DNA of 64,000 nucleotides. It comes from Bacteroidales bacterium. Lineage in GTDB: Bacteria > Bacteroidota > Bacteroidia > Bacteroidales > UBA3663. A program made the position numbers and the translations under genes. Within the stretch, counting starts at the first letter, position 1. Each line of letters opens with the position of its first letter. Positions 2,518 through 21,333 of the stretch are shown here, piece by piece. The notes beneath the pieces were generated by a model. That model searched no databases and had not been told where the DNA came from. It saw only the letters and a list, made by a program, of their open reading frames with translations. The stretch is taken from positions 97,630-161,629 of the forward strand of contig JAZQOF010000036.1 in the NCBI GenBank assembly GCA_045627785.1, written 5' to 3'.

Positions 2518-2537
2518 TACATTATATATATTATAGT

Positions 2538-4532: not shown

Positions 4533-4559
4533 TATTACTAATCTTTATTGCAAATGACA

Positions 4560-7421
4560 ATGAAATCAATATATAAACCAATTCTGACAGTTGCAATTGC
4601 TGCGGTTTCTGCCTTCCCTGTGATGGCACAGACTGAGGCAGAGGAGGAGGCAGGACAGAAGGTCAATGCCGCTTTCCATCAGATTGCAACCGAAGACCTC
4701 ATGGGTGGTTACGCAACAGTCGATGTTGAAGAACTCATGAAGAAGAACAACTTCACATATTCCCTCGACAATATGCAGGGATATGTTGGAGGATGGAATG
4801 GCGCAGGTTTGTGGGGTATATCTGGAGATGATATTCTCTATCTCATTGATGGTGTACCACGCGACAGAAACAATGTGAAGCCTGATGAAATCAAGGACAT
4901 TACTTTCATGAAGGGCGCTCAGGCAGTTATCCTCTATGGTAGCCGTGCCGCTAAGGGTGCAATCCTCATTACTACAAAGCGTGGTAAGGAAGACGACTTG
5001 AGAATCAATGTGAAGGCAAATACAGGATTCCATGTGGCAAAGGTATATCCTGAGTATCTTCATTCCGCAGAATACATGACACTCTACAATGAGGCTCTTG
5101 TTAATGATGGCGGAACTCCAAAGTATTCTCAGATGGATATCTATAATCATGCTTCTGGAACAAATCCATATCGCTATCCAGATGTGAATTTCTATTCAAG
5201 CGATTACATCAAGAAGGCTTATAACCGTACTGATGTTGTTGCGGAAATCACTGGCGGTAACCGTTTGGCTCAGTTCTATTCAAATGTCAGCTACTATCGT
5301 GTAGGCGATTATATGAATTTCGGCGAATCAAAGAATAACTATACAGATCGTCTTGATGTTCGTGGTAATGTTGACTTGCATATCAGTGACTATGTGAGTG
5401 GTTATGTAAATGCAACTGCGACATACTACAACTCAAAGTCTCCGGTTAATTCTAAGGTTCCTGGTACAGACAATACTTATATCGGTAATTTCTGGGAAGA
5501 GTCTACAACATTCCGTCCAAACCGATTCAGTCCGCTTATTCCTCTTTCAATGGTCGATGCAAGTGCACTTCCTGCAATAAAGCAGCTCGGTACATCGCAG
5601 AATATTATTGATGGTCTCTATTTCCTCGGTGGTAATGAGGCAAATGTCGATCAGAAGAATGTATTTGCCGACTACTATGCAGCAGGTAACAGCACTTGGA
5701 CATCACGTCAGTTCCAGTTCGATGCCGGTGTTAACATCGATCTCGAAAAGGTTCTGAAGGGGCTCAAGTTCTCTACACAGATGTCTATCGACTATGCTAC
5801 TTCATATAGTCAGTCGTACAATAATACTTATGCTACATTCAATCCAGCATGGAGTAGTGCAAATGGCTATGGTGCAGTGATCGGTGTAACAAAGTATGAT
5901 GAAGACAAGAAGTCTGGTACTCAGAATATCAACGGTTCTACTTCTAATCAGACAATTGCATTCAATGCACATTTGGATTATAACCGTACATTCAATGATG
6001 TTCACAATGTGAATGCAATCTATCTGGTAAGTGGTTTTACACAGACTAAATCTGGCGAGTATCATAAGACTGCTAATGTAAATATGGCACTTGATGTTGC
6101 ATATAACTTTGCTCACAAGTACTATGCAGAGGCTGCTCTTTCTTTGAATCATTCTTCACGTCTTCCAGAAGGCGGTCGTAAGGGACTTTCACAGTCTTAT
6201 ACTCTTGGCTGGAATATCGCAAAGGATCTCGATAATGACAATCTTGATTATTTGAAGCTTTCTGCAAGCTATAGTGATCTGAAGACAGATCTTGGCATTG
6301 ACTACTATGAATATCTTGGTTACTACAGCACAGGTGGCTGGTGGGACTGGGGTGGATCTGGCGTTACAGGTACACAGTCTAAGAAGGGTGCTAACAGTTC
6401 GTTGACATTCATTGACCGTAAGGAGATTTCTGCAACTCTCCAGGGATCTTTCTTCAAGAAACAGCTTTGGTTTGATGCTTCATTCTTTATTAATAATATT
6501 GAAGGTCAGCTGATCGATGGTTCAAGCACTGTTCCAAGCTATTTCATGACTTATTATCCGGAGACTTCATTCATATCACGTGTTAACTTCAACAATGACC
6601 GTAGCACAGGTTTCGACCTTTCAATCAACGGTAAGAAGAAATTCGGAGAATGGGATCTTCAGGCAGGTGTAAACATGACTTACTATACAACCAAGGCTAC
6701 AAAGCGAGATGATACTACTGTCGCTGACGACTATCAGAAGCGTGAAGGAAAGTATCTTGATGGTGTATGGGGTTATGAATGTCTTGGCTTCTTCAAGGAT
6801 GAGGCAGATATTAAGGCATCTCCAGAACAGGTCCTCGGTACAACTCCACGTGTAGGTGATCTTAAGTATAAGGATCAGAATGGCGATGGTGTTATCGATA
6901 ATCGAGACCAGGTTGAACTTGCCAAGGGCGGCTGGTATGGAGCACCTTTCACATTGGGTGTAAATCTCACTGCTAAGTACAAAGGCTTTACGTTGTTCGT
7001 CCTCGGTGTTGGCGGATTCGGAGGCACCGGCGTCAAGAACAACAGCTACTGGTGGAGCGGTGCAGGCGAGAATAAATATACTGCAGCCGTTCGTGACCGT
7101 GCCATTGTTAAGGATGGTCAGATTACTAACTTGAACACAGCAAGCTATCCAGCGTTGACAACTTCAAACGGTGCTAACAACTTCCAGACTTCAGACTTCT
7201 GGACATACAGCACAAGCCGTTTCAATCTTGCAAAGGTTCAGCTTACTTATGACTTTGCAGACAGTCTCTTTGAGAATAACAAGGTTGTTAAGGGTGTGTC
7301 AGTTTATGTTAGCGGTTCAGATCTGCTAACTATCGCACCTAACAAAGACATCCTTGAAATGAATGTCGGTTCTGCACCACAGTCTCGTTTCTATAATCTC
7401 GGTGTTAAGGTACAGTTCTAA
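4560..7421 (+). CDS. susC: Second SusC/RagA TonB-dependent transporter
   Basis: Signal peptide, plug motif LYGSRAAKGAILITTKRG, GDLKYKDQNGDG, terminal F. Start taken at ATG 4560; 4554 is possible. Confidence 0.95.
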   Translation: MKSIYKPILTVAIAAVSAFPVMAQTEAEEEAGQKVNAAFHQIATEDLMGGYATVDVEELMKKNNFTYSLDNMQGYVGGWNGAGLWGISGDDILYLIDGVPRDRNNVKPDEIKDITFMKGAQAVILYGSRAAKGAILITTKRGKEDDLRINVKANTGFHVAKVYPEYLHSAEYMTLYNEALVNDGGTPKYSQMDIYNHASGTNPYRYPDVNFYSSDYIKKAYNRTDVVAEITGGNRLAQFYSNVSYYRVGDYMNFGESKNNYTDRLDVRGNVDLHISDYVSGYVNATATYYNSKSPVNSKVPGTDNTYIGNFWEESTTFRPNRFSPLIPLSMVDASALPAIKQLGTSQNIIDGLYFLGGNEANVDQKNVFADYYAAGNSTWTSRQFQFDAGVNIDLEKVLKGLKFSTQMSIDYATSYSQSYNNTYATFNPAWSSANGYGAVIGVTKYDEDKKSGTQNINGSTSNQTIAFNAHLDYNRTFNDVHNVNAIYLVSGFTQTKSGEYHKTANVNMALDVAYNFAHKYYAEAALSLNHSSRLPEGGRKGLSQSYTLGWNIAKDLDNDNLDYLKLSASYSDLKTDLGIDYYEYLGYYSTGGWWDWGGSGVTGTQSKKGANSSLTFIDRKEISATLQGSFFKKQLWFDASFFINNIEGQLIDGSSTVPSYFMTYYPETSFISRVNFNNDRSTGFDLSINGKKKFGEWDLQAGVNMTYYTTKATKRDDTTVADDYQKREGKYLDGVWGYECLGFFKDEADIKASPEQVLGTTPRVGDLKYKDQNGDGVIDNRDQVELAKGGWYGAPFTLGVNLTAKYKGFTLFVLGVGGFGGTGVKNNSYWWSGAGENKYTAAVRDRAIVKDGQITNLNTASYPALTTSNGANNFQTSDFWTYSTSRFNLAKVQLTYDFADSLFENNKVVKGVSVYVSGSDLLTIAPNKDILEMNVGSAPQSRFYNLGVKVQF

Positions 7422-7436
7422 TAAAGGATAAGCATT

Positions 7437-9221
7437 ATGAAACTTAAGAATATTTTTATTTTGTCATCTGCAATTTTGGCATTCTCTTCTTGCGACGACT
7501 TGTTCGATCCAGCAATTGAGAATCAGCAGGACATTACGCAGATGTACAAGGACAAGGAGTTTGCGCGCGGTATCATCGCCAATGCTTTTATGCTGTTGCC
7601 TTACTCTGGTACTTCCAATAGTGATGTCGCTACAGACGATGCCGTTTCAAACGATAACTCTAACAGCTATCGTCAAATGGCTACAGGCGCTTGGTCTTCA
7701 CAGAATGACCCAATGAGCCAATGGCGCGATCGTTACAATGCAATTCAGTATTGTAACCTCATGCTTGAAAATGTCGAACAGGTTGAATGGTCAACATCTG
7801 ACCCTATTCTCAACCAGATGTATATCGATCATTTCAAGGGTAATTCATATGCAATGCGCGCTCTTCAGTTCTTCTATGTGCTGCGTGCCCATGCCGGCGT
7901 TTCTGCAAGCGGAGAGTTGTTAGGTGGTCAGATCCATCTCCAGTCGGAAGATGGTGGCTCTGACTTTAATCAGGCTCGTGCTTCATTCGCAGAGTGCATT
8001 AAACAAATTTTCAACGATCTCGATGAGGCAGAAAAGCTTCTTCCATATCAGTATGGAAATGTAAGTGAGAATGATGCAGCTCTCAGCAAGTATGCAGGTG
8101 CAACAAACTCACAGTACAATCGTGCTTTCGGTGATCATGAACGTGGCAAGATCGATGGTCGTATCATTGAAGCTATCCGTGCTCAGGTAGCACTCTTCGC
8201 TGCTTCTCCAGCATACGAAAGTGCTGGTGCAAGCTCTTGGCAGCAGGCAGCTGAATTTGCAGCACAGCTTTTGGTAAAGAATCATGGACTTTCTGCAATG
8301 CAGCAAGATGGCTGGACTTGGTATAATAACAATACCGAAATCGCAAACTTAGGTACAGGTGATAATCCAGCTGAAATTATCTGGCGTGACAATGTTGAGA
8401 AGAATCATAGCCGTGAAGCAGACAACTATCCTCCTTCAATTTTTGGTAATGGTCGTATCAACCCATCGCAAAATCTTGTAGATGCGTTCCCTATGGCTAA
8501 CGGTTACCCTATCAGCAATGCTGCTTCTGGCTACAATGCAAGCAAACCATACGATGGTCGTGACCCACGTCTCGCAGCTTACATTCTTTACAATGGTCAG
8601 AAAATTGGTGTGGACAATTCAGAAATTGTCACAGGTACTTATGTAACAGATAACTCAAGCGGTATCGACTTTGAAAAGGAGCGTTCTACTCGTACAGGTT
8701 ATTATCTCCATAAGTTGCTTCGCGATGATATCAACCTTGCTACAGGTAAAGAGACAGATCAGCAGCACTATACTGCTCGTATCCGTTTCACAGAAATCTT
8801 CCTTGCATATGCTGAGGCAGCAAATGAAGCTGGCGGTCCAGATGCTAAATTCGGTGGTGCAGACTTCTCGGCTAAGGATGTTATCCGCGCAATCCGTAAG
8901 CGTGCAGGTGTAGGTGGTCAGAATGACCCATACCTCGAATCTTGTTCATCAAAGGAGGCTTTGCGTGACCTTATCCGCAATGAACGTCGTCTTGAACTTT
9001 GTTTCGAGAACCAGCGTTTCTATGATCTCCGTCGTTGGAAGGCAGACCTCAACGAGACTGTCAAGGGTATTGTGATTTCTCAGAAGAATGCAGACGGTTC
9101 TCTCGTTTATACAATGAAGGATGTTGAGTCTCGTAGTTACAAGGATTATATGTATTATGGTCCTATGCCTTACGGTGAGACAATGAAGTGGAGCAATCTT
9201 CAGCAGAATCAAGGTTGGTAA
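7437..9221 (+). CDS. susD: Second SusD/RagB lipoprotein
   Basis: Lipobox FSSC, NPSQNLVDAFPM, RDPRL, ERRLELCFENQRFYDLRRW, terminal QNQGW. Confidence 0.95.
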   Translation: MKLKNIFILSSAILAFSSCDDLFDPAIENQQDITQMYKDKEFARGIIANAFMLLPYSGTSNSDVATDDAVSNDNSNSYRQMATGAWSSQNDPMSQWRDRYNAIQYCNLMLENVEQVEWSTSDPILNQMYIDHFKGNSYAMRALQFFYVLRAHAGVSASGELLGGQIHLQSEDGGSDFNQARASFAECIKQIFNDLDEAEKLLPYQYGNVSENDAALSKYAGATNSQYNRAFGDHERGKIDGRIIEAIRAQVALFAASPAYESAGASSWQQAAEFAAQLLVKNHGLSAMQQDGWTWYNNNTEIANLGTGDNPAEIIWRDNVEKNHSREADNYPPSIFGNGRINPSQNLVDAFPMANGYPISNAASGYNASKPYDGRDPRLAAYILYNGQKIGVDNSEIVTGTYVTDNSSGIDFEKERSTRTGYYLHKLLRDDINLATGKETDQQHYTARIRFTEIFLAYAEAANEAGGPDAKFGGADFSAKDVIRAIRKRAGVGGQNDPYLESCSSKEALRDLIRNERRLELCFENQRFYDLRRWKADLNETVKGIVISQKNADGSLVYTMKDVESRSYKDYMYYGPMPYGETMKWSNLQQNQGW

Positions 9222-9248
9222 TTGCTAAATATATTTATTTGAAATAAT

Positions 9249-10304
9249 ATGAGAAAAATTAATATTTTCAAAGTACTTGCTGCAGGTGTCATTGTTTATG
9301 GAATGAGCTCTTGTAAAAGTTCCGACATTGAATTTCCTGATTATACAGAGCAGACTGTATATTTCGCATACCAGACTCCAGTCCGTACAATAGTATTGGG
9401 TATGGATGATCTTGGATCTACTGCCGACAATGATACTCGTGCCTGCAAGATTTACTCTACAATGGGTGGTACTTACAATGGCGGTAAATACAATATCAAA
9501 GTAGATATCGCTGTAGATAACTCTCTTTGTGATAATCTCTATTTTGATCAGGCATGTACAAATCCTGTATTGCCTATGCCATCTTCTCACTATCAGCTCG
9601 GCGGTTCGGTTATCGAGTATCAGGGAGAAAAGGGATATGTTGATGTGCAGCTTACAGATGCATTCTTTGCAGATCCAAAGTCTTATCAGGCACAGTATGT
9701 AATTCCTGTTGTGATGAAATCGCAGACAGGAGCTACAAGAATTTTGTCTGGAGAGTTGCAGGAAGGTGTTTCTTCTGCTAATCGTTTTGATCTTTCATCC
9801 TGGTTTGTCAAACCTCAGGATTATGTGCTTTACTGTGTACGTTACATCTCTAAGTATCACGGATATTATCTTCCACAGGGTACTGTTACAACTTCAGCAG
9901 AGGGTGGCGTAAAGATGAATAGCAAGATTTATAAGTATCCTAACTGGGAGAGCGTTCCATCGGAGAATGTCGTTTATCTCTATACTCGCGGAGAGAATAC
10001 TGTAGCTCTTGACCTTGTTGCTACTCTTGGCGCAGAGTCTTATAATATCAGTGCACTTCTTACATTTAACGGTAATACTTGTACTATTACAAGCAATGAT
10101 CCGGATTTCAAGATTACAGGTACTGGTACTTATACAGAGAAATCTCCTTCATACAATTGGGGACAGAAGGATCGTGATGGCTTGAAGATTCAGTTCAAGG
10201 CAGAAGGCAAGGGTGTTGTTGTAGATGTTGACTATGACATGGCTCTTCAGCGTCGTGGTTCAGGTAATACAGTAGAAGAGTTCAACGTAACTCTCAAGAA
10301 GTAA
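9249..10304 (+). CDS. PUL surface lipoprotein (DUF1735/DUF5627-like, XusE position)
   Basis: Lipobox MSSC, EFPDY..TVYFAYQ.PVRT, VQLTDAFFADP, YVIPV. Lies between SusD and GH10 as in conserved Bacteroidetes xylan loci. Confidence 0.8.
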   Translation: MRKINIFKVLAAGVIVYGMSSCKSSDIEFPDYTEQTVYFAYQTPVRTIVLGMDDLGSTADNDTRACKIYSTMGGTYNGGKYNIKVDIAVDNSLCDNLYFDQACTNPVLPMPSSHYQLGGSVIEYQGEKGYVDVQLTDAFFADPKSYQAQYVIPVVMKSQTGATRILSGELQEGVSSANRFDLSSWFVKPQDYVLYCVRYISKYHGYYLPQGTVTTSAEGGVKMNSKIYKYPNWESVPSENVVYLYTRGENTVALDLVATLGAESYNISALLTFNGNTCTITSNDPDFKITGTGTYTEKSPSYNWGQKDRDGLKIQFKAEGKGVVVDVDYDMALQRRGSGNTVEEFNVTLKK

Positions 10305-10321
10305 TTATTATCGTATATATT

Positions 10322-13300
10322 ATGAATATGAAATATTTCCTTCCAGGCACAATGGCCATCTTCCTGATGGCTTCATGTGCCGACGAATTCAATCCTGAAT
10401 ATGAGGTAGAACAGCCTGTCGATGTTGCGAAGATTGCAGAATTGGCAGAGTTCAAGCCTCTAAAGGAGTATATCGATCGTAGTGCTCACCCGACGATGAA
10501 GTTGGGCGCTGCACTCGACGTCAAGGAATTCAACAAGAAACTTACTGTTTATAATGTTGCAGTAACAAACTTCGACGAAGTTGTTGCAGGCAATGCAATG
10601 AAGTTCGCTTCTTGTGTGGATTCTAAGGGTAAAATGGACTTCTCTGCAGTCGAGACATTTGTTGATGATGCAAAAGAAGCAGGTCTTACAATTTTCGGTC
10701 ATACATTGGCATGGCACTCGCAACAGCAGCCTAAGTGGCTCAGCTCATTGGTTCCTGGCGGTTCCGGAGGATCTGGTGGCGGTGGCGTTGCTGAGACTAC
10801 AAAATGCGTAGTTGTAAGAGCAACCGATATGGTTGAGAATCCATGGGACAATCAGTTCTTCCTTAAGGCTACCAAGTCATTGAACGCAGGTGATGTGACA
10901 AAGATTTCTTTCCGTTATCGTGCAGATGTTGCTTGTACTTCAGCTGGTACTCAGTGTCACACTAACCCAAGTGAGTATATCCACTGGGCAGCTATCGGAA
11001 GCTTTAATTTCACAACAGAATGGCAAGAGTTTGAAGCTGACTTCACAATCCCAGCAGAATGTGATGGCAAGAACATGCAGACTATCGCATTCAACCTCAA
11101 CGATTATGCTTCGGCTAATAACTACTATTTCGACGATTTCAAGTGGACAATCAATGGAGAATCTCTTGTCGTAAATGGAGACTGTGAAGGAGACGATGTT
11201 TCTTGCTACTTCTCGACAGTTGGTAAGAATGGTCCAAATCCAGCAACAATCGAGACTTATACATCTGGTGGAGGTTCTGGTGGCGGCGGAGGTTCTGCTC
11301 CTGCTAGCAAGGTTCGTTGCTATGTTGTTCATGCGACAGACATGGTTGCAGATCCATGGGACAATCAGTTCTGGATTATGTCAAACCGCGTTCTTCAGGC
11401 AGGTGAGAAGACAAAACTCTCATTCCGTGCTAAAGCTGCAGAAGCTGCTTCTATCGGAACACAGAGCCATGCAGGTGCTGGTGAATATATTCACTGGGCA
11501 GCTATGGGTAGTGTGAACTTCTCGACAGAATGGCAGGATTTCGAGTGGGATTTCACTATTCCTGCAGAGTGCGATGGTAAGAACATGCAGTCAATTGCAT
11601 TCAACCTCAATGACTATGCTGATGCTAATGACTATTACATTGACGATGTGTCATGGACTTGCGGTGACGAACAGCTTGTAAGCAATGGCGATGCATCAAC
11701 AGACGATAAGTCTAGCTTCTTCTCTAAAGTTAGTCAGGGCGCTCCTGGTCCTTGCCCAATCGAAGAGTTTACAGAAGGCGGAGGCGGTTCAACTGTAGTT
11801 CGTGCAATTGCAGTTCATGCAACCGATATGGTTTCTGATCCATGGGATAATCAGTTCTGGATTGGTGCAAACCGTGTGCTCCAGGCTGGTGAGGTTACTA
11901 ATATCTCATTTACTTGCAAGGCGAAAAATGCTGCTTCTATCGGAACACAGAGCCATGCAGGTCCAGGCGCATACCTCCATTGGGCAGCAATCGGCAATGT
12001 GAACTTCTCTACAGAGTGGACTGATTTTGAAACAAGCTTCACTATTCCTGCAGAGTGTGATGGAAAGGATATGCAGACAATCGCATTCAACTTGAACGAT
12101 TATGCTGATGCCAACGATTATTACTTCTGCAACTTCAAGTGGACTTGTGGTGATGAGAATCTCCTTGTAAACGGCGATTTGAACTCTGATGACACTTCAA
12201 GCTTCTTCACAAAAATCAGTCAGGGTAGTGTAACTAACTCTGCAATCGAAGAGGTTGTTGAACAGCAGGGCGGCGGAAGTGTTATTGAGGTAACAAAGAC
12301 GTATCGTGTTATTGAGGTTAAGGCTGGTGCAATGGTTGAGAATCCATGGGATCACCAGTTCTTCCTTACAATCCCAGGTGAGACATTCGAGGCTGGCAAG
12401 GAGTTCACTGTCAAGATGACTATCAAGGCAGATAAGCCTGCAAGTCCTGGCACACAGGCTCACGCAGGTCCTGGTGAGTACATTCACTGGGCAGCTATCG
12501 GTAATCCTCAGTTCACAACTAAGTGGACAGACTTTGAGTGGACAGGCACAGTTCCAGCAGAGTGCGCAGGCAAGGGTATGCACACAATCGCATTCAACTT
12601 GAATGATTACGCTGATGAGAATACATATTATTTCCGTGATCTCTCATGGGTATGCGATGGTAAGGAATATGTAGTCAATGGTAACCTTGCTACCGACGAT
12701 GCCACAAACTTCGTAACTGCAACATACGGAAAGGGTCAGAGCCCATCAACAATCAAGGAAATCACTGAGACAACATATGAAGAGGAAACTCCAATGTCTC
12801 CAGAAGAGAAGAAGATGATCCTTACAAATGTTCTTGATCAGTGGATCGGTGGTATGATGGATGCTACTCAGGGTTATGTAACAGCTTGGGATGTTGTCAA
12901 TGAAGCAATCTCTGGTGGCGGTAATGTTGATGGTCGTTATGACTTGCAGCATGCTGATCCTTCAAATCCAGATGACGCTAAGAACAATTTCTACTGGCAG
13001 GATTACCTCGGTAATGAGGATTATGTCCGTATCGTAGTTGGTCTTGCTCGCAAGCACTTCGAACGTCAGGAGAACAAGGCTGGTGACTTGAAACTCTTCA
13101 TCAACGACTACAACCTTGAGTCTTGGTGGGATGACAACAAGAAACTTGAATCTCTTATCGGCTGGATCAAGGTTTGGGAGTCTGATGGTGAGACTAAGAT
13201 CGATGGTATCGGTTCTCAGATGCACGTTAGCTACTACGAGAATGCTACTACTCAGGCTGATCTTGAGAAGCATATCGTTAAGATGCTTGAAATGATGGCT

Positions 13301-13606
13301 AAGTCTGGTAAGCTCTGCCGTATCTCCGAGCTCGATATGGGTTATGTCAAGGCTGATGGTTCTTCTGCTACTCTCGCAGAAATGACTCCTGAAATGGAGA
13401 AGCAGATGGAAAGCTTCTACAAATGGATCATTGAGCAGTATATGACTATCATTCCAGAACCACAGAAGTACGGCATCACTCAGTGGTGTTTGACTGACAG
13501 CCCAGCTGGTTCAGGATGGCGTGCTGACAGCCCTGTAGGTATCTGGGATACTAACTGGTACCGTAAGTATGTTTACCGTGGTTGGACAGAAGGTTTGACA
13601 AAGTAA
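10322..13606 (+). CDS. xyn10C: GH10 endo-1,4-beta-xylanase lipoprotein (Xyn10C type) with four inserted CBM4-like modules
   Basis: Lipobox MASC. N-half of barrel (GNAMK, GHTLAWHSQ) and C-half (WDVVNE acid/base, LFINDYN, IDGIGSQMH, ISELD nucleophile) are separated by four PWD[N/H]QF repeats. Confidence 0.92.
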   Translation: MNMKYFLPGTMAIFLMASCADEFNPEYEVEQPVDVAKIAELAEFKPLKEYIDRSAHPTMKLGAALDVKEFNKKLTVYNVAVTNFDEVVAGNAMKFASCVDSKGKMDFSAVETFVDDAKEAGLTIFGHTLAWHSQQQPKWLSSLVPGGSGGSGGGGVAETTKCVVVRATDMVENPWDNQFFLKATKSLNAGDVTKISFRYRADVACTSAGTQCHTNPSEYIHWAAIGSFNFTTEWQEFEADFTIPAECDGKNMQTIAFNLNDYASANNYYFDDFKWTINGESLVVNGDCEGDDVSCYFSTVGKNGPNPATIETYTSGGGSGGGGGSAPASKVRCYVVHATDMVADPWDNQFWIMSNRVLQAGEKTKLSFRAKAAEAASIGTQSHAGAGEYIHWAAMGSVNFSTEWQDFEWDFTIPAECDGKNMQSIAFNLNDYADANDYYIDDVSWTCGDEQLVSNGDASTDDKSSFFSKVSQGAPGPCPIEEFTEGGGGSTVVRAIAVHATDMVSDPWDNQFWIGANRVLQAGEVTNISFTCKAKNAASIGTQSHAGPGAYLHWAAIGNVNFSTEWTDFETSFTIPAECDGKDMQTIAFNLNDYADANDYYFCNFKWTCGDENLLVNGDLNSDDTSSFFTKISQGSVTNSAIEEVVEQQGGGSVIEVTKTYRVIEVKAGAMVENPWDHQFFLTIPGETFEAGKEFTVKMTIKADKPASPGTQAHAGPGEYIHWAAIGNPQFTTKWTDFEWTGTVPAECAGKGMHTIAFNLNDYADENTYYFRDLSWVCDGKEYVVNGNLATDDATNFVTATYGKGQSPSTIKEITETTYEEETPMSPEEKKMILTNVLDQWIGGMMDATQGYVTAWDVVNEAISGGGNVDGRYDLQHADPSNPDDAKNNFYWQDYLGNEDYVRIVVGLARKHFERQENKAGDLKLFINDYNLESWWDDNKKLESLIGWIKVWESDGETKIDGIGSQMHVSYYENATTQADLEKHIVKMLEMMAKSGKLCRISELDMGYVKADGSSATLAEMTPEMEKQMESFYKWIIEQYMTIIPEPQKYGITQWCLTDSPAGSGWRADSPVGIWDTNWYRKYVYRGWTEGLTK
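10800..12760 (+). repeat. Four intragenic ~160-aa CBM4-like repeats joined by Gly-rich linkers (approximate bounds)
   Basis: MVxxPWD[N/H]QF...HWAA[I/M]G...PAECxGKxM..IAFNLNDYA recurs four times. A 33-nt exact DNA match lies at 11444-11476 and 11930-11962. Confidence 0.9.
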
Positions 13607-13631
13607 TCCTATTCTGTCGACGATAATAAAT

Positions 13632-13670
13632 CAAAAACGGACGTTTCTTCGGAGACGTCCGTTTTTGTTT
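13632..13670 (+). terminator. Intrinsic (probably bidirectional) terminator of the xylan locus
   Basis: CAAAAACGGACGTTTC-TTCG-GAGACGTCCGTTTTTG: 16-bp stem with one G-U, C(UUCG)G loop and U-tract, just after the GH10 stop. Confidence 0.92.
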
Positions 13671-13695
13671 CGACACTTTTCTTGCACTCGGCTAC

Positions 13696-13821
13696 GATCG
13701 TTGGCATCAACACAATGCGCAAAGTGTTGATGTTGCCGACCGTTGACATCAACATTTGTAAATATTTGTTGATGTCGCCAATCGTTTGCGTCAACATCTG
13801 TAAATAAATGTTGATGTCGTA
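13696..13821. repeat. Three tandem 42-bp units, each an inverted repeat CRTCAACA-N12-TGTTGATG
   Basis: Units at 13696-13737, 13738-13779 and 13780-13821, bracketed by GCTACGA (13691-13697) and TCGTAGC (13817-13823). Confidence 0.88.
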
Positions 13822-13954: not shown

Positions 13955-13986
13955 TTTGTAATTTTGATAAAAAAAGAGTAATTTTG
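13955..13986 (+). promoter_or_regulatory. Bacteroidetes sigmaA promoter (-33/-7)
   Basis: TTTG at 13955-13958, 20-nt spacer, TAATTTTG at 13979-13986, matching TTTG-N19-21-TAnnTTTG. Confidence 0.75.
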
Positions 13987-14027
13987 TGCGTTTGGAAATT
14001 ATCATTACTTTACTGAATACAACGAAT

Positions 14028-14987
14028 ATGAAGAACCTGTTTTTAGTTTTGGTGGCAATCTGTTCAGTTAGTCTTTCTTCTGCACAGAATCTGAAATTCG
14101 GAAAACCATCGCAGATGGATTGGACTATGGTAGGATGGAGCGAGGCTCCCGATGCAGAGGCTGTAGTGCTTTGCAAAACTCTCAAGACTACTTATGAACT
14201 TGTAGGAAGCTACTCCGCTTATGACAATTCTACTTCAGAGTTAAGCATGGATAACTATGCCAACAGCGGAATGAATAAATTTATCAATGAGGGAAACACC
14301 ACAATGACCTATGAGGTCAAGATGCGTACAAAAATCCTCAAGGATAGTGGTACTGGTTATGCCAATATCGACATCGTTTATTTTGATGACGAGAAGGTAA
14401 AGGCCGCCTATGACGAATTCAAGAACTTCAGCGTTGTGGTTTTCAAGAACGAAAATGGCAAGGTAAAGAAAATCAAGCAAGGTAAGGAAATCTTCAAGGA
14501 TGAGAGATTGAACGAGAACTACAAGGTGAGACATGTTGTTGTGCCGGATGTTAAGGCAGGTGATATCATCGAATACCAGTACGATCTCTACAGCAAGCGC
14601 GTGACATTCCTGTATGACTGGCAGGTTCAGGAAGATAAGATTCCTGTGATGTATTCATTGTGCGATATGGATATTCCATTGTTCTTGCAGTTCAATATGC
14701 AGGTTCCAAAACATCCTTTCGTAAAGTCAAAGGTAGAGGAAGGTCTGTTGTTCTTGCCACAAGAGGGCGCTGATCTGCAGGCACCAAAGCGTTGCAAGAC
14801 AAATCACTACACGATCGAAGTAAAGGATATGCTTCCACGAGAGCTTGATCTGCAGAGAAATCAGGATAAGGCTCAGGTCGCACAAGTCGAAGGAACAGGC
14901 AAGATCCAGGCACGAATCAATGTCCCATACATTGAAAAGCCTGTCGATATGCCAGCGGGCAAGTATCATATTATGGTTAATCCATAA
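14028..14987 (+). CDS. Secreted DUF3857-like domain protein (no transglutaminase domain seen)
   Basis: ATG 14028 gives signal peptide MKNLFLVLVAICSVSLSSAQ. Motifs KFGK, PDAEAVVL, RTKIL, PDVKAGDIIEYQY, WQVQ..IPV. Confidence 0.75.
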   Translation: MKNLFLVLVAICSVSLSSAQNLKFGKPSQMDWTMVGWSEAPDAEAVVLCKTLKTTYELVGSYSAYDNSTSELSMDNYANSGMNKFINEGNTTMTYEVKMRTKILKDSGTGYANIDIVYFDDEKVKAAYDEFKNFSVVVFKNENGKVKKIKQGKEIFKDERLNENYKVRHVVVPDVKAGDIIEYQYDLYSKRVTFLYDWQVQEDKIPVMYSLCDMDIPLFLQFNMQVPKHPFVKSKVEEGLLFLPQEGADLQAPKRCKTNHYTIEVKDMLPRELDLQRNQDKAQVAQVEGTGKIQARINVPYIEKPVDMPAGKYHIMVNP

Positions 14988-14989
14988 GA

Positions 14990-16777
14990 ATGAAACCGGT
15001 AAGGACTATATATTTGAGATGGTTGCCGGCAATAATCTTTTGCCTGGCAATCGCTTTGTATATCTTGGTGACATATTACCAGGATATGATCTATACAGCA
15101 CATTTGCGCACGCCGTTCATTGGAGGAAGTCTTTTCTTCAATGAATTGATGTCGTCTCCTTTCGGTATGATGCAATGGGTCGGCTGTTGGCTTACTCAAT
15201 TCTGTTACCATCCATTGCTTGCAATTGCCATCTATGTTGGAATTTGGCTTGCAACATATTTCTTTGCAGACAAAAGTTTTGCGTTGCCTGTCAAATGGGT
15301 GTCTTTGCAGATAATACCATTAGGCTGTCTGCTTCTTAGCATTGTGGATCTTGGTTACTGGATCTATTGCATGACAGAATATGGCTATTGGTTTTCTCAT
15401 TCATTAGGTTGCCTTTTGATGTTTTTATTACTATTTGTCATTAAACGTGCAATCAAGAGATATGGAAATATTGCAGGAGTAAGTTCCTTGGCATTTATCC
15501 TATTGCTTTATCCTGTTCTTGGCTGGTACTGCATTCTTCTTGCTTTGTTGATGACAATAATGGAATGGCAGACGCAGAAATATTGGTTATTGGTATGTCT
15601 GGCGCCAATGTTGTGGTCGTTTGTCGCTTATGACACGATATCGACTCGAGATCTTTGGTTGAGCGGTTTCCCGATATTCGAAGATGGCGGAAAGATATGC
15701 GACAGGGTCTCAATACCATTCTATGTATTGGCTGTTTCTTCGTTGTTGCTTGCCGTTGTTTCTTCTTTTTACAAAGACCGTCAGAAGGAAGAAGATGTAA
15801 GGAAAGTCACTATTCACAGCATTATTGCTACTTTCATAACATCCTTGCTTGTCTTTGTCGGTGTTTGGCAGATGATGTTCAAGGACTACAACTATCTTGC
15901 GGAGATGCGAATGTCGCAATGCGCGATGAATGAAGATTGGACAGGCGTGTTGCAGGAAGCCCAGAAACAGCAGTCGCCAAGTCATAGTATGGTATTGCTA
16001 AAGAATCTGGCATTGGTGAATACTGGAGGACTTGGAGAATATGGATTTAAGTTTACAAGTAACGGAACAGATATAAAGAATCCAGACGGATTGAATATCG
16101 GTCCGATACAGATTGCCGGCCCGATAGTTTATGCGAATTATGGTAAGATTAACTATGCAACACGATGGTCTCAGGAATTTGCCGTCTGCTATGGTTATTC
16201 GCCTTATTATCTGATGCATCTTGCAAGAACTGCTAAGGCAAAAGGTGAGAGATCTGTTGAAAATAAATATCTGACACTTTTGCATAGCCATAAGTACTAC
16301 GAAAATTGGTTGCCTGCAGCGTATTCTCCATTGGCAAAAGAGATAGAGAGAACTTATGGAAATGTGATAGATTCGGATAATAATAATATGGAGTATTATC
16401 TGATGGATACATTCAGCCAGTCTTACGGCTCGGACAATGAGATTGTGCTTGAATTAAGTCTGTTTAACGCAATGCTCATTAGAGATCCGGAACGATTCTG
16501 GAATGCTTTTGTCGGCTATGCTCAGACCATTCCGGGAAAGGTATTGCCTCAGCATTATCAGGAAGCTTATTTCTTGTTTATGGAAGCTGCTCCTGTTGAA
16601 TTGCCGGTACATGTCAGTGTTTCAAATGGTATGGCAGAAGCCTATACTTCGTTCCGCAGACAGTATGACTCATTAAGTCAATTAGGTTATAACAAAGAAA
16701 TGATGGCAAAAGCTCTACAGGTTAATTGGGGAGGATCATATTGGTGGCACTATTTCTTTGGAAAGAAAATGTCTTGA
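14990..16777 (+). CDS. Polytopic membrane protein, DUF6057-like (copy 1)
   Basis: About 10 N-terminal hydrophobic segments (WLTQF, DLGYWIY), then a helical soluble domain with W..VL, NLAL...G.L, YQEAY and C-terminal SYWWHYFF. Confidence 0.78.
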   Translation: MKPVRTIYLRWLPAIIFCLAIALYILVTYYQDMIYTAHLRTPFIGGSLFFNELMSSPFGMMQWVGCWLTQFCYHPLLAIAIYVGIWLATYFFADKSFALPVKWVSLQIIPLGCLLLSIVDLGYWIYCMTEYGYWFSHSLGCLLMFLLLFVIKRAIKRYGNIAGVSSLAFILLLYPVLGWYCILLALLMTIMEWQTQKYWLLVCLAPMLWSFVAYDTISTRDLWLSGFPIFEDGGKICDRVSIPFYVLAVSSLLLAVVSSFYKDRQKEEDVRKVTIHSIIATFITSLLVFVGVWQMMFKDYNYLAEMRMSQCAMNEDWTGVLQEAQKQQSPSHSMVLLKNLALVNTGGLGEYGFKFTSNGTDIKNPDGLNIGPIQIAGPIVYANYGKINYATRWSQEFAVCYGYSPYYLMHLARTAKAKGERSVENKYLTLLHSHKYYENWLPAAYSPLAKEIERTYGNVIDSDNNNMEYYLMDTFSQSYGSDNEIVLELSLFNAMLIRDPERFWNAFVGYAQTIPGKVLPQHYQEAYFLFMEAAPVELPVHVSVSNGMAEAYTSFRRQYDSLSQLGYNKEMMAKALQVNWGGSYWWHYFFGKKMS

Positions 16778-16780
16778 TAG

Positions 16781-18226
16781 ATGAAACATATTATATACAT
16801 ATTGTTGTCGATATTATTACTGTCGTGCACGACTCGTCCGGATCTGCCGAAAGAGTATGTGCAACTGGAAGCATACCCTTTTATATTCCCGGATTATACT
16901 GATGTGACAATTCCTTCAAATATTGCACCACTGAACTTTATGTCGAGCGATAGTGTTAGCGGAGGAATTGTGGCAGAATTCGTTTCAGCGAATGGCAAGC
17001 ATTATACATATGGCAAGGATAAGATTGTGCAGATTCCTCAAGATGAATGGGAAGAAATGCGGAATGCTTCGATTGGGAAGGATATTGATGTGACTGTATA
17101 TAGTATCCATAGAAAAACCGGGCAATGGGCTCAGTTCAAGACATTCAAGATTCATGTGGCTCCTGATGACATTGATCCGTATATTTCTTATCGACTGATT
17201 GCTCCTGGATATATGTTATACAATAAGATGTGTATAGCACAAAGGACGATGACTTCGTTTGAGGAGACGGAGATCTATAACAACCAGGTATCGGGCGCAG
17301 GAGGTAAAGGACAATGTATTAATTGTCACAGTTATCAGAACTATGGCACGGAAAATATGCTGTTTCATGTTCGTGTTACTGACGGCGGAACGGTTATCGT
17401 TGTTGACGGAAAACCTCGTAAGGTTGACTTGAAAAGACCAAATACAATCAGTGCAGGAGTATATCCGTCTTGGCATCCGACAGAAAAACTGATTGCATTT
17501 TCAACAGATAAGACCGCTCAGTGGTTTCATATTTCGGATGTGAATAAGGTTGAGGTTTTTGACAGTGCCAGCGATCTGATACTTTATTCTGTAGAAAAGG
17601 ATTCTGTGATGATCATTGCTAACGATCCGTCTCGTCTGGAAGTTTTTCCAACGTGGACTCCTTCTGGAGATTATCTTTATTATTGTTCTGCTGACTCTTG
17701 GGAGAACGACAGCGCAGATTTTCGTGTAGATTATGATAAATTGCGTTATAATCTGTATAGGAAAAGTTTCGATATCAAGTCTTTGACTTTTGGCGAAGAA
17801 GAACTCGTTTATGCTGCTGATAGTTTAGGTCGAAGTGTGAGTTTGCCTCGTGTTAGTCCGGATGGAAAACATATTGCTATGGCAGAAGGCGGGTATGGTT
17901 ATTTTAATATCTGGCATCATGATGCAGATATTAAGGTGCTTGGTGTAGATGCTTCTGGAATCAATAGCGTCGGATATGCGGAAAGTTATCCGTCTTGGTC
18001 GAGCAACGGCAAATGGCTGATGTGCGCAAGTCGTAGGGATGATGGAAATTATAGCCGTGTGTATATTTCCTATTTTGATGGAGATAGTGTATATAAAGCG
18101 TTTGAATTGCCTCAAGAGGATCCTCGGCATAATATGTTGCGATTGAACAGTTATAACCGGCCAGAGTTTATGAAAGAGGCTGTGAAGGTTTCTGTTAAGG
18201 AATTTGCAAATGTCGTAAAAGAGTAA
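16781..18226 (+). CDS. TolB/PD40 beta-propeller lipoprotein with CxxCH motif (copy 1)
   Basis: Lipobox LLSC, FPDYTDVTIPSNIAPLNF, CINCH at 17315-17329, PD40-type repeats (YPSWHP, FPTWTPSG, PRVSPDG, YPSWSSNG). Confidence 0.82.
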   Translation: MKHIIYILLSILLLSCTTRPDLPKEYVQLEAYPFIFPDYTDVTIPSNIAPLNFMSSDSVSGGIVAEFVSANGKHYTYGKDKIVQIPQDEWEEMRNASIGKDIDVTVYSIHRKTGQWAQFKTFKIHVAPDDIDPYISYRLIAPGYMLYNKMCIAQRTMTSFEETEIYNNQVSGAGGKGQCINCHSYQNYGTENMLFHVRVTDGGTVIVVDGKPRKVDLKRPNTISAGVYPSWHPTEKLIAFSTDKTAQWFHISDVNKVEVFDSASDLILYSVEKDSVMIIANDPSRLEVFPTWTPSGDYLYYCSADSWENDSADFRVDYDKLRYNLYRKSFDIKSLTFGEEELVYAADSLGRSVSLPRVSPDGKHIAMAEGGYGYFNIWHHDADIKVLGVDASGINSVGYAESYPSWSSNGKWLMCASRRDDGNYSRVYISYFDGDSVYKAFELPQEDPRHNMLRLNSYNRPEFMKEAVKVSVKEFANVVKE

Positions 18227-18229
18227 AAG

Positions 18230-19774
18230 ATGACTTTGGCAAAGGACCGGATATATTGGAGTGTATCTGCTGTCGTGATCGTTACAGCTTTGCTTTTGTA
18301 TTTTTTGCAAGAGTACAGGCTTTATGCAAAAGAGGCGGAACATCTCTGGTTGAATGATTGGCTTTGGATAAAACAGCAGTTGAATCGTCCTGGTACTTTT
18401 GCACAGGTTTGTACCTCTTTCCTGACGCAGTTTTTCCAGTTCGCTCTTATAGGACCTATAGTATTGAGCTTACTCTTTGGTTTTGTCTTTTTGATTTGCA
18501 GGAATATAGGGAAACAATTTGGAATAAGTGACAGTTTGATTTCATTCTGGCTGCTACCATTAGTGTTCATGTTTCTTTGCAATGAGAATTCATATTTTAA
18601 CCTGACCGGACATTTCGCTTTTGCATTGTCCTTAGCTTTTGTTTTGATATACATAAGAATACGTGTGGCAAGTGCTTTGGCATTAAAGATAAACCTGATA
18701 CTTAGTCCGATAATTATCGTTATAACTTATGTATTGTCTGGGTCTGTCGCTTTGGTCACAGCAGTTGTTGTTGGGCTATATGAATTGCTGAAGAAAAAGA
18801 ATTGGATGGGTATTATTGCTCCTGTTCTGTCATTTATTTTTTGTGCAGGAATCTCTGTGCGGATGAAATATTTCGTGGATATGGAAGAAGCGATTACACC
18901 TGCGCAGTATTATGAATGGCCTTCAACTTATTTCTTCCCATTATACGCTTGGATTTCTGTTCCACTCCTTCTGGTTTTAGGATATTTGTTGAATAAAGAT
19001 TATTCTGCCAAAGTTAGAAATTTCATATTTGTCGGAGGAATTGTTGTCTCAGCACTTTCATTTGTTAATATGTATGGCGCAGTGCATAATGAAAGAGTAT
19101 ACCAACTGCGAAAAGATGAATGGATGGCCAGGAATATGGACTGGAGAGGCATAATAGAGGCTCACAAAGGGAAGAAAGAACCTACTCCGTTTATCAGTTA
19201 TTTGAATCTTGCATTGGCTGAAGAAGGACTATTAGTGCAAAGGATGGGAGATTTCAATCCGTATATTGTGTGGTCGGAAGATGCAAATATGTTTTCTCCT
19301 GTCTTTATGACTAATGATGAGAATTCAAGAGAGTCTTTGAAGTTGCAGAGTTGTATTTTTATGCGGTGGGGCGGAAGCGCTCTAGCTAATGCTCAAAAGG
19401 CAGCGTTTGAAGCTAATTTGCTGACTCCAGGACATACGGATCCAACGGAGTTGCAGAGATTGATAGTTACAAATAGTTTGTTTGATACAGACAGAACTGC
19501 ACTGAAATATGCGAATCGGTTGGCGAGGACCACATTCTATAAAGATGCATATCCTTCTGGAGAACAATTGGAAGAACTGGAGGATGTGTTGAAACGAACA
19601 TTGCCAGCCGACGATTCTTTCTATATGAAGACACAAATTGGAAGGATGTTGCGTGATATTGCTTATCAGACACCTGATAATAAGATTGCAACGCAGTTCT
19701 ATGAAGCGTATCTGATTCAATCTCGGGATACAACAGCCTATAGGCATTGGAAAGAGTACAATCAAAGTCTGTAA
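18230..19774 (+). CDS. Polytopic membrane protein, DUF6057-like (copy 2, divergent)
   Basis: Same architecture as 14990-16777: FLTQFF, multiple TM segments, DWRGII, YLNLALAEEGLL. Confidence 0.72.
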   Translation: MTLAKDRIYWSVSAVVIVTALLLYFLQEYRLYAKEAEHLWLNDWLWIKQQLNRPGTFAQVCTSFLTQFFQFALIGPIVLSLLFGFVFLICRNIGKQFGISDSLISFWLLPLVFMFLCNENSYFNLTGHFAFALSLAFVLIYIRIRVASALALKINLILSPIIIVITYVLSGSVALVTAVVVGLYELLKKKNWMGIIAPVLSFIFCAGISVRMKYFVDMEEAITPAQYYEWPSTYFFPLYAWISVPLLLVLGYLLNKDYSAKVRNFIFVGGIVVSALSFVNMYGAVHNERVYQLRKDEWMARNMDWRGIIEAHKGKKEPTPFISYLNLALAEEGLLVQRMGDFNPYIVWSEDANMFSPVFMTNDENSRESLKLQSCIFMRWGGSALANAQKAAFEANLLTPGHTDPTELQRLIVTNSLFDTDRTALKYANRLARTTFYKDAYPSGEQLEELEDVLKRTLPADDSFYMKTQIGRMLRDIAYQTPDNKIATQFYEAYLIQSRDTTAYRHWKEYNQSL

Positions 19775-19788
19775 CATTTATATTTGCT

Positions 19789-21333
19789 ATGAGAAATCTT
19801 TTGTTAATGATAGCGTCGATATTTGTTCTTTTGTCTTCATGTATAGATAAAAGAATAGATATTGTGGAATATACAGATGAAGAGATTTCTATTTGGCCAG
19901 ATTATAAAGGTGTGACAATACCATATAATATAGCTCCATTAAGTTTTAGTGTTGACAACATAGACCAGAAAGTAGCGCTTATTATTAAGACAAATTCGGA
20001 TTCAATTATCTTTTTTGGAGATGATGGTTGTTTTAATCTGCCGCAAAAAGAATGGCGCGGCTTCTTGAATAATGCAATAAACGATTCGATACAATTTACA
20101 ATTTGTGTCGCTGCTCAGTGCGGATGGAAATCACTTAAACCATTTTGGGTGTATGTCTCGGAAGATGAGATAGACTCGCATTTAGTATATCGCAAAATCA
20201 CTCCGGGGTATGGCCTTTGGAACAGAATGAGCCTTTGTCAACGATGTTTGCAAAACTACGAAGAAAAAGAAATTTACCGTAATGAAGAGGGTAAGGGTAA
20301 TTGTATAAACTGCCATTCTTTTTGTAATGGTAATCCAGAAAAATGGCAGATGCATATAAGAACAAAGAATGGCGGAACTTATCTTTTTGAGGGACAAGAT
20401 CAGTCGTTGCTAAGTTTGAAAGATAAATCGAATGGTAATCCTGTGTATGCAAATTGGCATCCTGATGGAGAACTTGTTGCATATTCCAACAATAATACTT
20501 TCTTCCTGATACACACCGTTAAAACTAATAGATGGGAAGTTATGGATGATGGTTCTGATGTCTTTGTTGCAGATATTAAAACAGGAGAGCAATACCGCTG
20601 TGAGTTTATTTCGTCAAAAAACAATTATGAAACATTTCCATGTTTCTCGCCAAACGGAAAGTTCTTGTATTTTACTTCAGCGGAAGCGAAAAATAATTTG
20701 ATTAACGAATATGATAGTGTTCAGTATAATATCTGTCGAATAGCATTCGATGCTGAAACACGATCTTTTGGAAACGTCGTTGATACTTTGTTTAATGCAA
20801 AAAAAGATGGGGGTAGTGCATCTTTTCCTCGTATTTCGCCTGATGGTAGATGGCTTTGCTTTACTCGTTCTTCTTATGGCAATTTCAGTATTTGTCATCG
20901 TGATGCGGATCTTTGTTTGATAGATCTTTCTTTGTATCTAAATAAATTTTCTCATTCTTCGGTCCAAAACGACGAGTCTGTTGCTGGTAATCAAAGTTTA
21001 GATTCTTTTGCTTGCTATTATGAGAAGTTGGAAATTGCTAATAGTGAACAGGTAGAAAGCTATCATAGTTGGAGTCGTAATTCCCGTTGGCTGGTGTTCA
21101 GTAGTAAGCGAGATGATGCAATTTATACTAAGCCTTATTTTGTGCATATTGATGAAGAAGGAAGAGCTTCAAAACCTTTTTTGTTGCCACAATTAGATGC
21201 CAAAAACTATTACGATCTTGAAATGGTCTGTTATAATCTTCCAGAACTCGTTTCTGGCGAGGTTCCTATTAGGAAGATCAGACTTGAAAAAACGCTTCAA
21301 AGTGGCGCTCAAAACCAAATTTCGGTAAATTGA
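19789..21333 (+). CDS. TolB/PD40 beta-propeller lipoprotein with CxxCH motif (copy 2)
   Basis: ATG 19789 gives lipobox LSSC. WPDYKGVTIPYNIAPLSF, CINCH at 20302-20316, WHPDG, FSPNG, PRISPDG, WSRNS. Confidence 0.82.
   Translation: MRNLLLMIASIFVLLSSCIDKRIDIVEYTDEEISIWPDYKGVTIPYNIAPLSFSVDNIDQKVALIIKTNSDSIIFFGDDGCFNLPQKEWRGFLNNAINDSIQFTICVAAQCGWKSLKPFWVYVSEDEIDSHLVYRKITPGYGLWNRMSLCQRCLQNYEEKEIYRNEEGKGNCINCHSFCNGNPEKWQMHIRTKNGGTYLFEGQDQSLLSLKDKSNGNPVYANWHPDGELVAYSNNNTFFLIHTVKTNRWEVMDDGSDVFVADIKTGEQYRCEFISSKNNYETFPCFSPNGKFLYFTSAEAKNNLINEYDSVQYNICRIAFDAETRSFGNVVDTLFNAKKDGGSASFPRISPDGRWLCFTRSSYGNFSICHRDADLCLIDLSLYLNKFSHSSVQNDESVAGNQSLDSFACYYEKLEIANSEQVESYHSWSRNSRWLVFSSKRDDAIYTKPYFVHIDEEGRASKPFLLPQLDAKNYYDLEMVCYNLPELVSGEVPIRKIRLEKTLQSGAQNQISVN

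Follow-up and report, generated by a model that had tools for sequence, protein, structure and literature searches.

Bacteroidales of the gut and rumen carry a widespread, undescribed envelope module composed of two proteins: a DUF6057 membrane protein, here called M, and a PD40 lipoprotein, here called L. We describe the module from a 64,000-nucleotide stretch of DNA of a Bacteroidales bacterium (contig JAZQOF010000036.1, positions 97,630 to 161,629; hereafter, the window), in which two M–L pairs, M1–L1 and M2–L2, lie one behind the other. M and L constitute an obligate two-subunit module and, in some organisms, one fused chain: the two genes are linked, the two proteins have co-diversified, and natural fusions of them exist. 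Structure prediction suggests that M has the fold of GT-C glycosyltransferases and that L has a TolB-like propeller. Both folds are known. What is new is the obligate pairing, the conserved center on the propeller, and the loss of the GT-C acids from most members. Our leading reading, which we hold tentatively, is that the pair would form a two-subunit periplasmic chamber in which the GT-C-shaped domain of M and the center of L act on a lipid-linked or envelope glycan. At the level of titles and abstracts, we found no published description of the DUF6057 or M–L family, and database names for L are generic (“PD40 domain-containing” or “hypothetical”).

The module is laid out in the window as follows:

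14990..16777, + strand: M1, DUF6057 membrane protein of the ‘long’ subfamily, 595 aa (open reading frame list, Pfam).
16781..18226, + strand: L1, PD40 lipoprotein, Cys16, 481 aa, with an N-terminal beta domain and a six-bladed propeller of TolB-like fold.
17315..17329, + strand: codons of the L1 CINCH motif, residues 179-183, in the predicted first strand of a beta-hairpin in propeller blade 1.
18230..19774, + strand: M2, DUF6057 membrane protein of the ‘short’ subfamily, 514 aa, which keeps E35, D43, and E119; its predicted GT-C-fold membrane domain is residues 1 to about 290.
18308..18436, + strand: first periplasmic loop of M2, residues 27-69, predicted to hold two short helices at the GT-C catalytic-loop position.
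19088..19771, + strand: predicted TPR-like periplasmic domain of M2, residues 287-514, the putative main docking surface for L.
19789..21333, + strand: L2, the second lipoprotein, Cys18, a paralog of L1.
20302..20316, + strand: codons of the L2 CINCH motif, residues 172-176 counted from the ATG at 19789.

M1 and M2 match DUF6057 (PF19529) in Pfam with E = 1.1e-52 and 4.9e-62, respectively (180.2 and 211 bits; the curated cut-off is 29.8 bits). L1 and L2 both match PD40, and the two carry the lipoprotein signals LLSC and LSSC. The L2 open reading frame spans 19747-21333, with a TTG at 19747; translation likely begins at the ATG at 19789, from which the protein is 514 aa long and has a normal lipoprotein signal peptide. 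Gaps of 3 nt (M1/L1), 3 nt (L1/M2), and 14 nt (M2/L2) separate the genes. An earlier, sequence-only reading of this DNA had placed the pair twice in one tight operon between a xylan locus and a polysaccharide locus. The gene map agrees, with the putative operon starting one gene earlier, at a DUF3857 gene that ends 2 nt before M1. As that reading also had it, the two lipoproteins are divergent yet share conspicuous motifs: L1 and L2 share 32% identity across 509 aligned columns (E = 7e-82), and both contain PDYxxVTIPxNIAPLxF and CINCH. Between M1 and M2, identity is only 22%, across 345 columns (E = 5e-05).

The pairing of M with L extends through the window genome (3.15 Mb, 50 contigs, 90% complete) and well beyond it. 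The genome has nine DUF6057 genes in four clusters, and an L paralog lies directly after M in 9/9. For other genomes, a pattern scan of reference genomes from a 14-sequence alignment gave at least 601 related stretches, from which 80 external loci were kept. At least 1 kb of upstream flank is available in 75 of the 80, the other 5 being cut by contig ends, and M is directly upstream of L, on the same strand, in all 75. Linkage in other genomes, a check that the sequence-only reading had put forward, is therefore complete in these samples. The two subunits also diversify together. Specifically, across 88 pairs, the M and L distance matrices correlate with r = 0.93, a value reached by 0/999 permutations, and so each pair is duplicated and moves as one unit. 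In 58 of the 88 cases, the closest M and the closest L belong to a single pair. Finally, 4/150 L-family representatives are fusions, that is, single chains in which the L domains come after DUF6057. One cluster of such fusions contains 35 proteins, and among the 15 members listed, lengths run from 968 to 1067 aa, each protein being on its own ENA or Logan contigs. Another fusion is an NCBI record from a Marinilabiliaceae metagenome-assembled genome, and fusion P0157 has a linker in place of the L signal peptide.

The L family is large: at E <= 1e-3, a library of 1.84 billion proteins contains 2,276 of its cluster representatives. The related stretches come mostly from rumen and gut Bacteroidales. 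L reaches 9 copies in a single genome; within the window’s genus, L copy numbers are 9, 2, 4, 0, 7, 2, 2, and 0. Typical Bacteroidales M–L modules are also present on contigs L023, L041, and L065, labeled Roseburia sp., Methanomethylophilaceae archaeon, and Alistipes ihumii, respectively; the labels of L023 and L041, at least, look like binning errors. One L-family representative, P0234 (647 aa), joins alpha-L-rhamnosidase N-terminal domains to the C-terminal part of the propeller, and is either a chimeric gene or an assembly artifact. A scan of the phylum also returned weak DUF6057 matches that proved to be FtsW/RodA proteins and a TPR protein; they fall under the family cut-off, and we do not count them as kin.

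We predicted the complex of full-length M2 with residues 19-500 of L2 in three runs, accompanied by three controls. The ipSAE interface scores are 0.78, 0.80, and 0.80, whereas no control exceeds 0.00. At least 90% of the contacts recur between runs, the partner has a predicted local distance difference test (pLDDT) value of at least 81, and the interface comprises about 90 contacts. In a benchmark, the same ipSAE mark was passed by 116/157 solved complexes and by 2/215 mismatched pairs, rates that apply only roughly here because our own alignments were used. The sequence-only reading had proposed that the pair is a membrane-anchored complex, and the predicted interface, the absolute linkage of the genes, and the natural fusions together support that proposal.

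On the M2 side, the predicted contacts fall in the first periplasmic loop (41-49), in residues 213-231, and in the TPR domain (365-465). On the L2 side, they fall in 138-145, 161-169, 240-250, 442-446, and 470-479. Several interface residues are well conserved: in M, D43 (47/60), P231 (57/60), F393 (54/60), D/E394 (59/60), and K426 (59/60), and in L, P139 (76/84), F241 (74/84), E250 (75/84), and D443 (76/84). Variable positions are interleaved with these and could set the specificity of each pair. The invariant L residues R138, C179-H183, and R419 (L1 numbering) adjoin the contact segments in sequence, an arrangement that leads us to infer that the conserved center of L probably lies on the side facing M.

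What do the subunits resemble? The predicted M2 model is of high quality (pLDDT 95.2; predicted template modeling score, pTM, 0.92). In an exhaustive structural alignment against 48,161 chains, its top 10 matches are all GT-C enzymes, a result in keeping with the earlier remark that M resembles GT-C transferases. The best match is Pmt1/2 (Z 11.8, 260 residues aligned, root-mean-square deviation 5.9), followed by Pmt4 (Z 10.7), STT3, ALG3, AftD, ArnT, PglB, AftA, AglB, and AftB, with Z of 8.0-10.7 for this second group. The GT-C alignments cover about 250-286 residues. Because the top rows are uniformly GT-C, we predict that the membrane domain of M has the GT-C glycosyltransferase fold. Residues 287-455 of M2 match TPR proteins, with Z of about 6-8.

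The likeness to GT-C enzymes is one of layout as well. In the model, the first transmembrane helix of M precedes a long first outer loop with short helices, and a helical repeat domain follows the membrane domain. Among GT-C enzymes, the PMT-family protein O-mannosyltransferases (Pmt1/2 and Pmt4 have solved structures) and those of the TMTC type carry luminal or periplasmic TPR or accessory domains. The M2 subfamily, like GT-C enzymes, has acids in its first two outer loops: in an alignment of 60 sequences, E35 is present in 55, D43 in 49, and E119 in 54. That alignment was built from M2’s own relatives and is thus biased to the M2 subfamily. M differs from GT-C enzymes in four respects. First, it has no detectable sequence similarity to any GT-C family. 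Second, most of its members lack conserved acids in the membrane domain. Third, its TPR domain is predicted to bind an obligate, separately encoded propeller lipoprotein; we know of no GT-C enzyme with such a partner. Fourth, the membrane core is partly deleted in certain paralogs.

L is a predicted propeller. The L1 model (pLDDT 94.4) has TolB (1c5k) as its best fold match, with Z 25.7 and a root-mean-square deviation of 3.2 over 262 residues in the model range 43-466; the next propeller that is not TolB has Z 19.5. Foldseek likewise returns TolB for L1, at E = 4.4e-13, and an L profile gives weak TolB-family matches among solved structures (E = 6e-08 to 1e-04). A sequence search of solved structures with L1 returned nothing relevant, and in a protein atlas L1 has only generic TolB or PD40 cluster labels.

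Upon this propeller sits a strikingly constant set of residues. In a 121-sequence alignment, R138, H183, and R198 are present in all 121, C179 and C182 in 120 each, N181 in 118, and H196 in 108. CxxCH is found in 146/150 cluster representatives and CxNCH in 144/150, and three of the four sequences without CxxCH are fragments or partial matches; the conservation of CxxCH, which the sequence-only reading had listed as a check, is thus borne out. CxNCH is also kept in the L partners of all 88 pairs, whatever acids the cognate M carries. The sole full-length L without the cysteines is also without H196. The joint loss of C179, C182, and H196 suggests, from sequence, a single functional center that is kept or lost whole. 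The His/Arg-rich set would suit a metal center, a thiol/imidazole site, or the binding of an anionic head group. As for location, acidic residues after the lipobox direct lipoproteins of these bacteria to the surface, and L has few: none in 62/111 and one in 44/111. These counts fit a periplasmic rather than a surface location.

The two-subunit chamber would work as follows. Its folds and complex are predicted, and its topology, substrate, and chemistry are our extrapolation from them. M would be a polytopic inner-membrane protein with its C-terminal TPR domain facing the periplasm. That domain, together with the first periplasmic loop, would clamp one face of the L propeller, so that the two proteins together wall off a chamber, for reaction or for binding, directly over the membrane. 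The GT-C-type groove of M would hold a lipid-linked (polyprenyl-phosphate-type) or envelope glycan, and the His/Arg-rich center of L would bind or process an anionic head group or an acceptor. In the M2 subfamily, which keeps the acids, M itself may catalyze transfer. In the commoner M1 subfamily, in which the acids are absent, M may be a lipid-holding scaffold and L the active part. If the model is true, GT-C-fold proteins can serve in a two-protein machine as the partner of a propeller lipoprotein that carries the conserved chemistry. A predicted heterodimer with defined interface residues, a candidate active center, and natural single-chain fusions are now in hand for experiments.

A number of observations weigh against this reading. 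Regarding the fold, the Z scores of M2 (8-12) lie under the roughly 13 advised for helical bundles. Foldseek of the membrane protein, a check suggested by the sequence-only reading, gave M2 no match in the PDB at E <= 1e-3; it was the wider structural alignment that produced the GT-C top 10. In sequence, all 60 M proteins of the M2 alignment, scanned at E up to 1, matched only DUF6057, bar one GtrII match at E = 0.025, and neither an M profile nor M2 itself found anything relevant among solved structures. Regarding chemistry, none of E35, D43, and E119 is kept at the aligned positions in 64/88 pairs, with the alignment between M subfamilies standing at 16-22% identity. M1, with H, G, and V at the three positions, has none of the GT-C-type acids, and neither has its nearest paralog: in these two proteins, position 35 is H or Q, position 43 is G, and position 119 is V. 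Across 82 sequences, the M1-type membrane domain has no acidic or basic residue at 90% conservation. Its conserved residues are Gly, Tyr, and Pro, and conserved charges start only in the periplasmic domain. Moreover, two DUF6057 paralogs, C8c and C23c, have internal deletions in the membrane core and keep the TPR domain. The first (350 aa; C8:19640-20692, L009:15641-16693) lacks approximately Pfam-model positions 110-277, and the second (406 aa; C23:21907-23127, L010:7908-9128) lacks approximately positions 158-270. Both shortened proteins keep the N-terminal segment, and an intact L gene directly follows each. Regarding context, no donor-synthesis gene is consistently linked to the module in the neighborhoods examined, and the neighbors are heterogeneous. 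Finally, the putative chamber geometry rests on the contact list and on the adjacency of residues in sequence, the complex score expresses confidence in a model and is not a measurement, and co-diversification of neighboring genes is expected from co-inheritance alone.

The same observations reveal where the constancy of the module lies. Because the GT-C acids are absent from most M proteins, the deletions spare the TPR domain, and CxNCH is kept throughout, the universally conserved parts are the TPR docking domain of M and the center of L. The TPR domain is also the most conserved part of the M family.

Foremost among the alternatives, and in our view unlikely, is that M is a canonical GT-C transferase, which would take its sugar from a polyprenyl-phosphate donor and attach it to an acceptor in the periplasm, whether protein, lipid, or glycan, in the manner of the TPR-bearing protein O-mannosyltransferases (PMTs). 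L would then be a non-catalytic recruiter of acceptors or a dedicated acceptor. PMT-type enzymes do head the M2 fold list, a TPR domain does follow the membrane domain, the M2-subfamily acids occupy GT-C loop positions, and the first periplasmic loop of M touches L in the complex model. Nonetheless, the pairs without any of the three acids outnumber those with them, the M1-type membrane domain offers no conserved charge, and shortened M proteins persist beside intact L partners. Conservation in M is concentrated in the TPR domain, whereas the Cys/His/Arg center of L is universal, and the interface, with about 90 contacts, looks more like that of a stable complex than like a transient encounter of enzyme with substrate.

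A non-enzymatic role is a less likely alternative still. In that case, M would be a GT-C-derived pseudoenzyme that anchors L, and the propeller would bind a lipoprotein, peptidoglycan, or an imported glycan as a tether or sensor, as TolB does. In structure, L matches TolB far better than anything else, and L shares the two-domain architecture of TolB in its model, an N-terminal domain followed by a six-bladed PD40 propeller. The lack of catalytic acids in most M proteins, the range of 0 to 9 copies within a genus, as for an accessory function, and the frequent position of the module beside glycan-degradation genes likewise speak for a tether or sensor. However, L is not TolB: L1 and L2 score 28.4 and 30.5 bits against the TolB model (TIGR02800), versus an equivalog cut-off of 343.15, and identity is 12-17%. 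Unlike TolB, L is a lipoprotein, and it bears the invariant CxNCH motif along with the invariant His and Arg residues. Also unlike TolB, it can be present 9 times in one genome and adjoins DUF6057 rather than tolQRA or pal; neither the window nor any of the three other clusters contains tol or pal genes. A Cys/Asn/Cys/His plus His/Arg set kept so nearly without change is typical of catalytic or cofactor sites, less so of protein-binding surfaces, and the loss of H196 along with the cysteines in the one cysteine-less full-length L suggests a single functional center.

An architectural analogy prompts another possibility. In the glycosylphosphatidylinositol (GPI) transamidase, PIGU is a GT-C-like, lipid-binding subunit without catalytic residues, and luminal subunits carry a Cys/His active site. 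M–L could be a counterpart in architecture only: a mostly acid-less, GT-C-shaped M is paired with a soluble-domain L bearing conserved Cys and His, and PIGU chains are among the matches of the M membrane domain, with Z of 6.5-7.0. By this analogy, M–L would be a new kind of periplasmic lipid-linked-glycan enzyme with a split active site, in which a GT-C subunit, acid-less in most lineages, presents a polyprenyl-phosphate substrate and L, clamped over it, supplies a Cys/His/Arg (or metal) center. The enzyme could ligate, cleave, or remodel envelope glycoconjugates, with a specificity proper to each paralogous pair. We consider this version improbable. As to the analogy itself, L is not homologous to any transamidase subunit, the PIGU Z scores are low and within the chance range for helical bundles, and transpeptidation by M–L is without any support.

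The sequence-only reading had raised heme as a possibility. On this view, L is a c-type cytochrome, with heme attached at CxxCH, and M and L make a redox or sensing unit. There are grounds for the suggestion. CxxCH is nearly invariant in an exported protein, H196, H232, or H379 could give the distal ligand, and R138 and R198 could bind propionates. The window genome also has a system II maturation gene: at C30:49241-50236 (L012, L013), a single 393-aa open frame matching ResB and CcsA is a short, fused CcsBA-type maturation protein. CcsA is found in 32 of 38 L-bearing genomes and was not seen in the other 6, whose completeness is uncertain, so that co-occurrence does not discriminate.

Structure points the other way. 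In the L1 model, residues 178-186 form a beta-strand paired with residues 189-199 in propeller blade 1, with block-mean pLDDT values of 82 and 96 around the motif, whereas in cytochromes the motif belongs to a helix. From this secondary structure, C179 (beside H196) and C182 would be on opposite faces of the strand, a poor fit to two thioethers on one heme and unlike the usual CxxCH. No cytochrome family is matched by L in Pfam or NCBIfam, no cytochrome is among the L profile matches to solved structures, and none is in the top 50 fold matches. In addition, the M1-type membrane domain has no conserved polar residue for a quinone or a second heme. Heme c on L is unlikely, and the cytochrome reading as a whole very much so; thus, a tempting but probably wrong cytochrome label can be removed from L annotation.

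Does the neighborhood of the module disclose its role? In the window genome, all four M–L clusters are within about 6 kb of a SusD gene, and the genome’s 3.15 Mb contains only 15 SusD matches. Among the external loci, the gene immediately upstream encodes a glycoside hydrolase, an esterase, a carbohydrate-binding-module (CBM) protein, or SusD in 25/66. The gene immediately downstream (n=74) encodes an S9 DPP-IV-type peptidase in 12, a glycoside hydrolase (GH) or carbohydrate esterase in 11, Amidase_3 in 5, a RidA-like protein in 5, and a hybrid two-component (HTCS) regulator in 2. A SusD-like gene is present in the examined flanks of 10/80 external loci, and many external copies are among housekeeping genes, including those for Pta, RibBA, GyrB, and aminotransferases. 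The module is autonomous; it is often, not necessarily, found among glycan-use genes. Thus, the link to polysaccharide utilization or capsule loci, which the sequence-only reading proposed to test by neighborhood statistics, holds for SusD at 4/4 window-genome clusters and fails to generalize, and adjacency to a capsule locus looks incidental.

Least probable of all is that the module is a dedicated component of polysaccharide utilization loci, i.e., a periplasmic binder or processing enzyme for imported oligosaccharides that is specific to its locus (xylan here): the SusD genes of the window genome and the glycan genes often adjacent in other genomes favor it, but SusD is scarce in the external flanks, many copies are among housekeeping genes or next to the S9 peptidase, a hairpin parts the xylan operon from the module operon, and many external loci are syntenic orthologs, not independent cases.

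The S9 DPP-IV-type peptidase (about 720-770 aa) is directly downstream, on the same strand, in loci L017, L021, L023, L024, L025, L028, L031, L041, L046, L056, L061, and L065. The recurrent order of M, L, and S9 peptidase may be conserved synteny. A DUF418/acyltransferase_3-like membrane protein is directly beside an M–L pair in two unrelated loci, C41:70959-72194 (L011:12960-14195) and L083:5015-6145.

Downstream of the module, from 21553, the window continues with a flippase and glycosyltransferase (capsule-type) locus, to which the sequence-only reading had implied a tie. Membership of the module in the capsule locus was considered and rejected. In a relative (L069), the order is GH10, M–L, one further open reading frame, M–L, and then directly NrdD, with no capsule locus, and in the window the capsule locus coincides with a drop in G+C from 0.42 to about 0.35. 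For both reasons, the adjacency seen here probably reflects an insertion.

The 37-kb low-G+C (0.33-0.39) segment itself, 21553-58234, is a glycan-biosynthesis locus that is probably an insertion relative to L069. It encodes a flippase and several GT2, GT1, and GT4 proteins, as well as a LuxC/LuxE-type acyl-protein synthetase and reductase with KAS III and a short-chain reductase. Also present are NeuB with a cytidylyltransferase, an MBOAT protein, a sulfatase-family membrane protein, two CotH-kinase-domain proteins, and a phytase-like protein.

Upstream of the module, two further features mark the start of its putative operon:

13629..13670, + strand: likely terminator hairpin just past the stop codon of the GH10 gene; its 19-nt arms show 89% complementarity (inverted-repeat search).
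13986..14987, + strand: gene for a DUF3857-domain secreted protein or lipoprotein (PF12969, E = 1.3e-08), the first of the tight operon.

The hairpin, which a simple terminator scan did not list, likely sets the xylan operon apart from the module operon. A DUF3857 gene also flanks the module in locus L014; such a gene is not a general companion of M–L. A sigma-70 promoter scan gave 27 sites versus a shuffle mean of 25, i.e., no excess, and around the operon ends there are no invertible-promoter-type inverted repeats beyond the hairpin and a patch of palindromic repeats. That patch, at 13694-13796 in the 380-nt gap upstream of the DUF3857 gene, consists of overlapping imperfect palindromes built on TGTTGATG / CATCAACA and could be an operator or a promoter-associated repeat.

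The upstream flank is a xylan-type locus with two SusC/SusD pairs, a DUF5627 gene, and a GH10 gene with CBM4_9. Specifically, window positions 1-13606 make up a complete xylan-utilization core, in which the two SusC/SusD pairs are in tandem, the DUF5627 gene is BT_3987-like, and the GH10 xylanase is 1094 aa long. Repeated CBM4_9-type modules, joined by Gly/Ser linkers, split the catalytic domain of the xylanase. The layout of this core is presumably the same as that of the Xus cluster of Prevotella bryantii.

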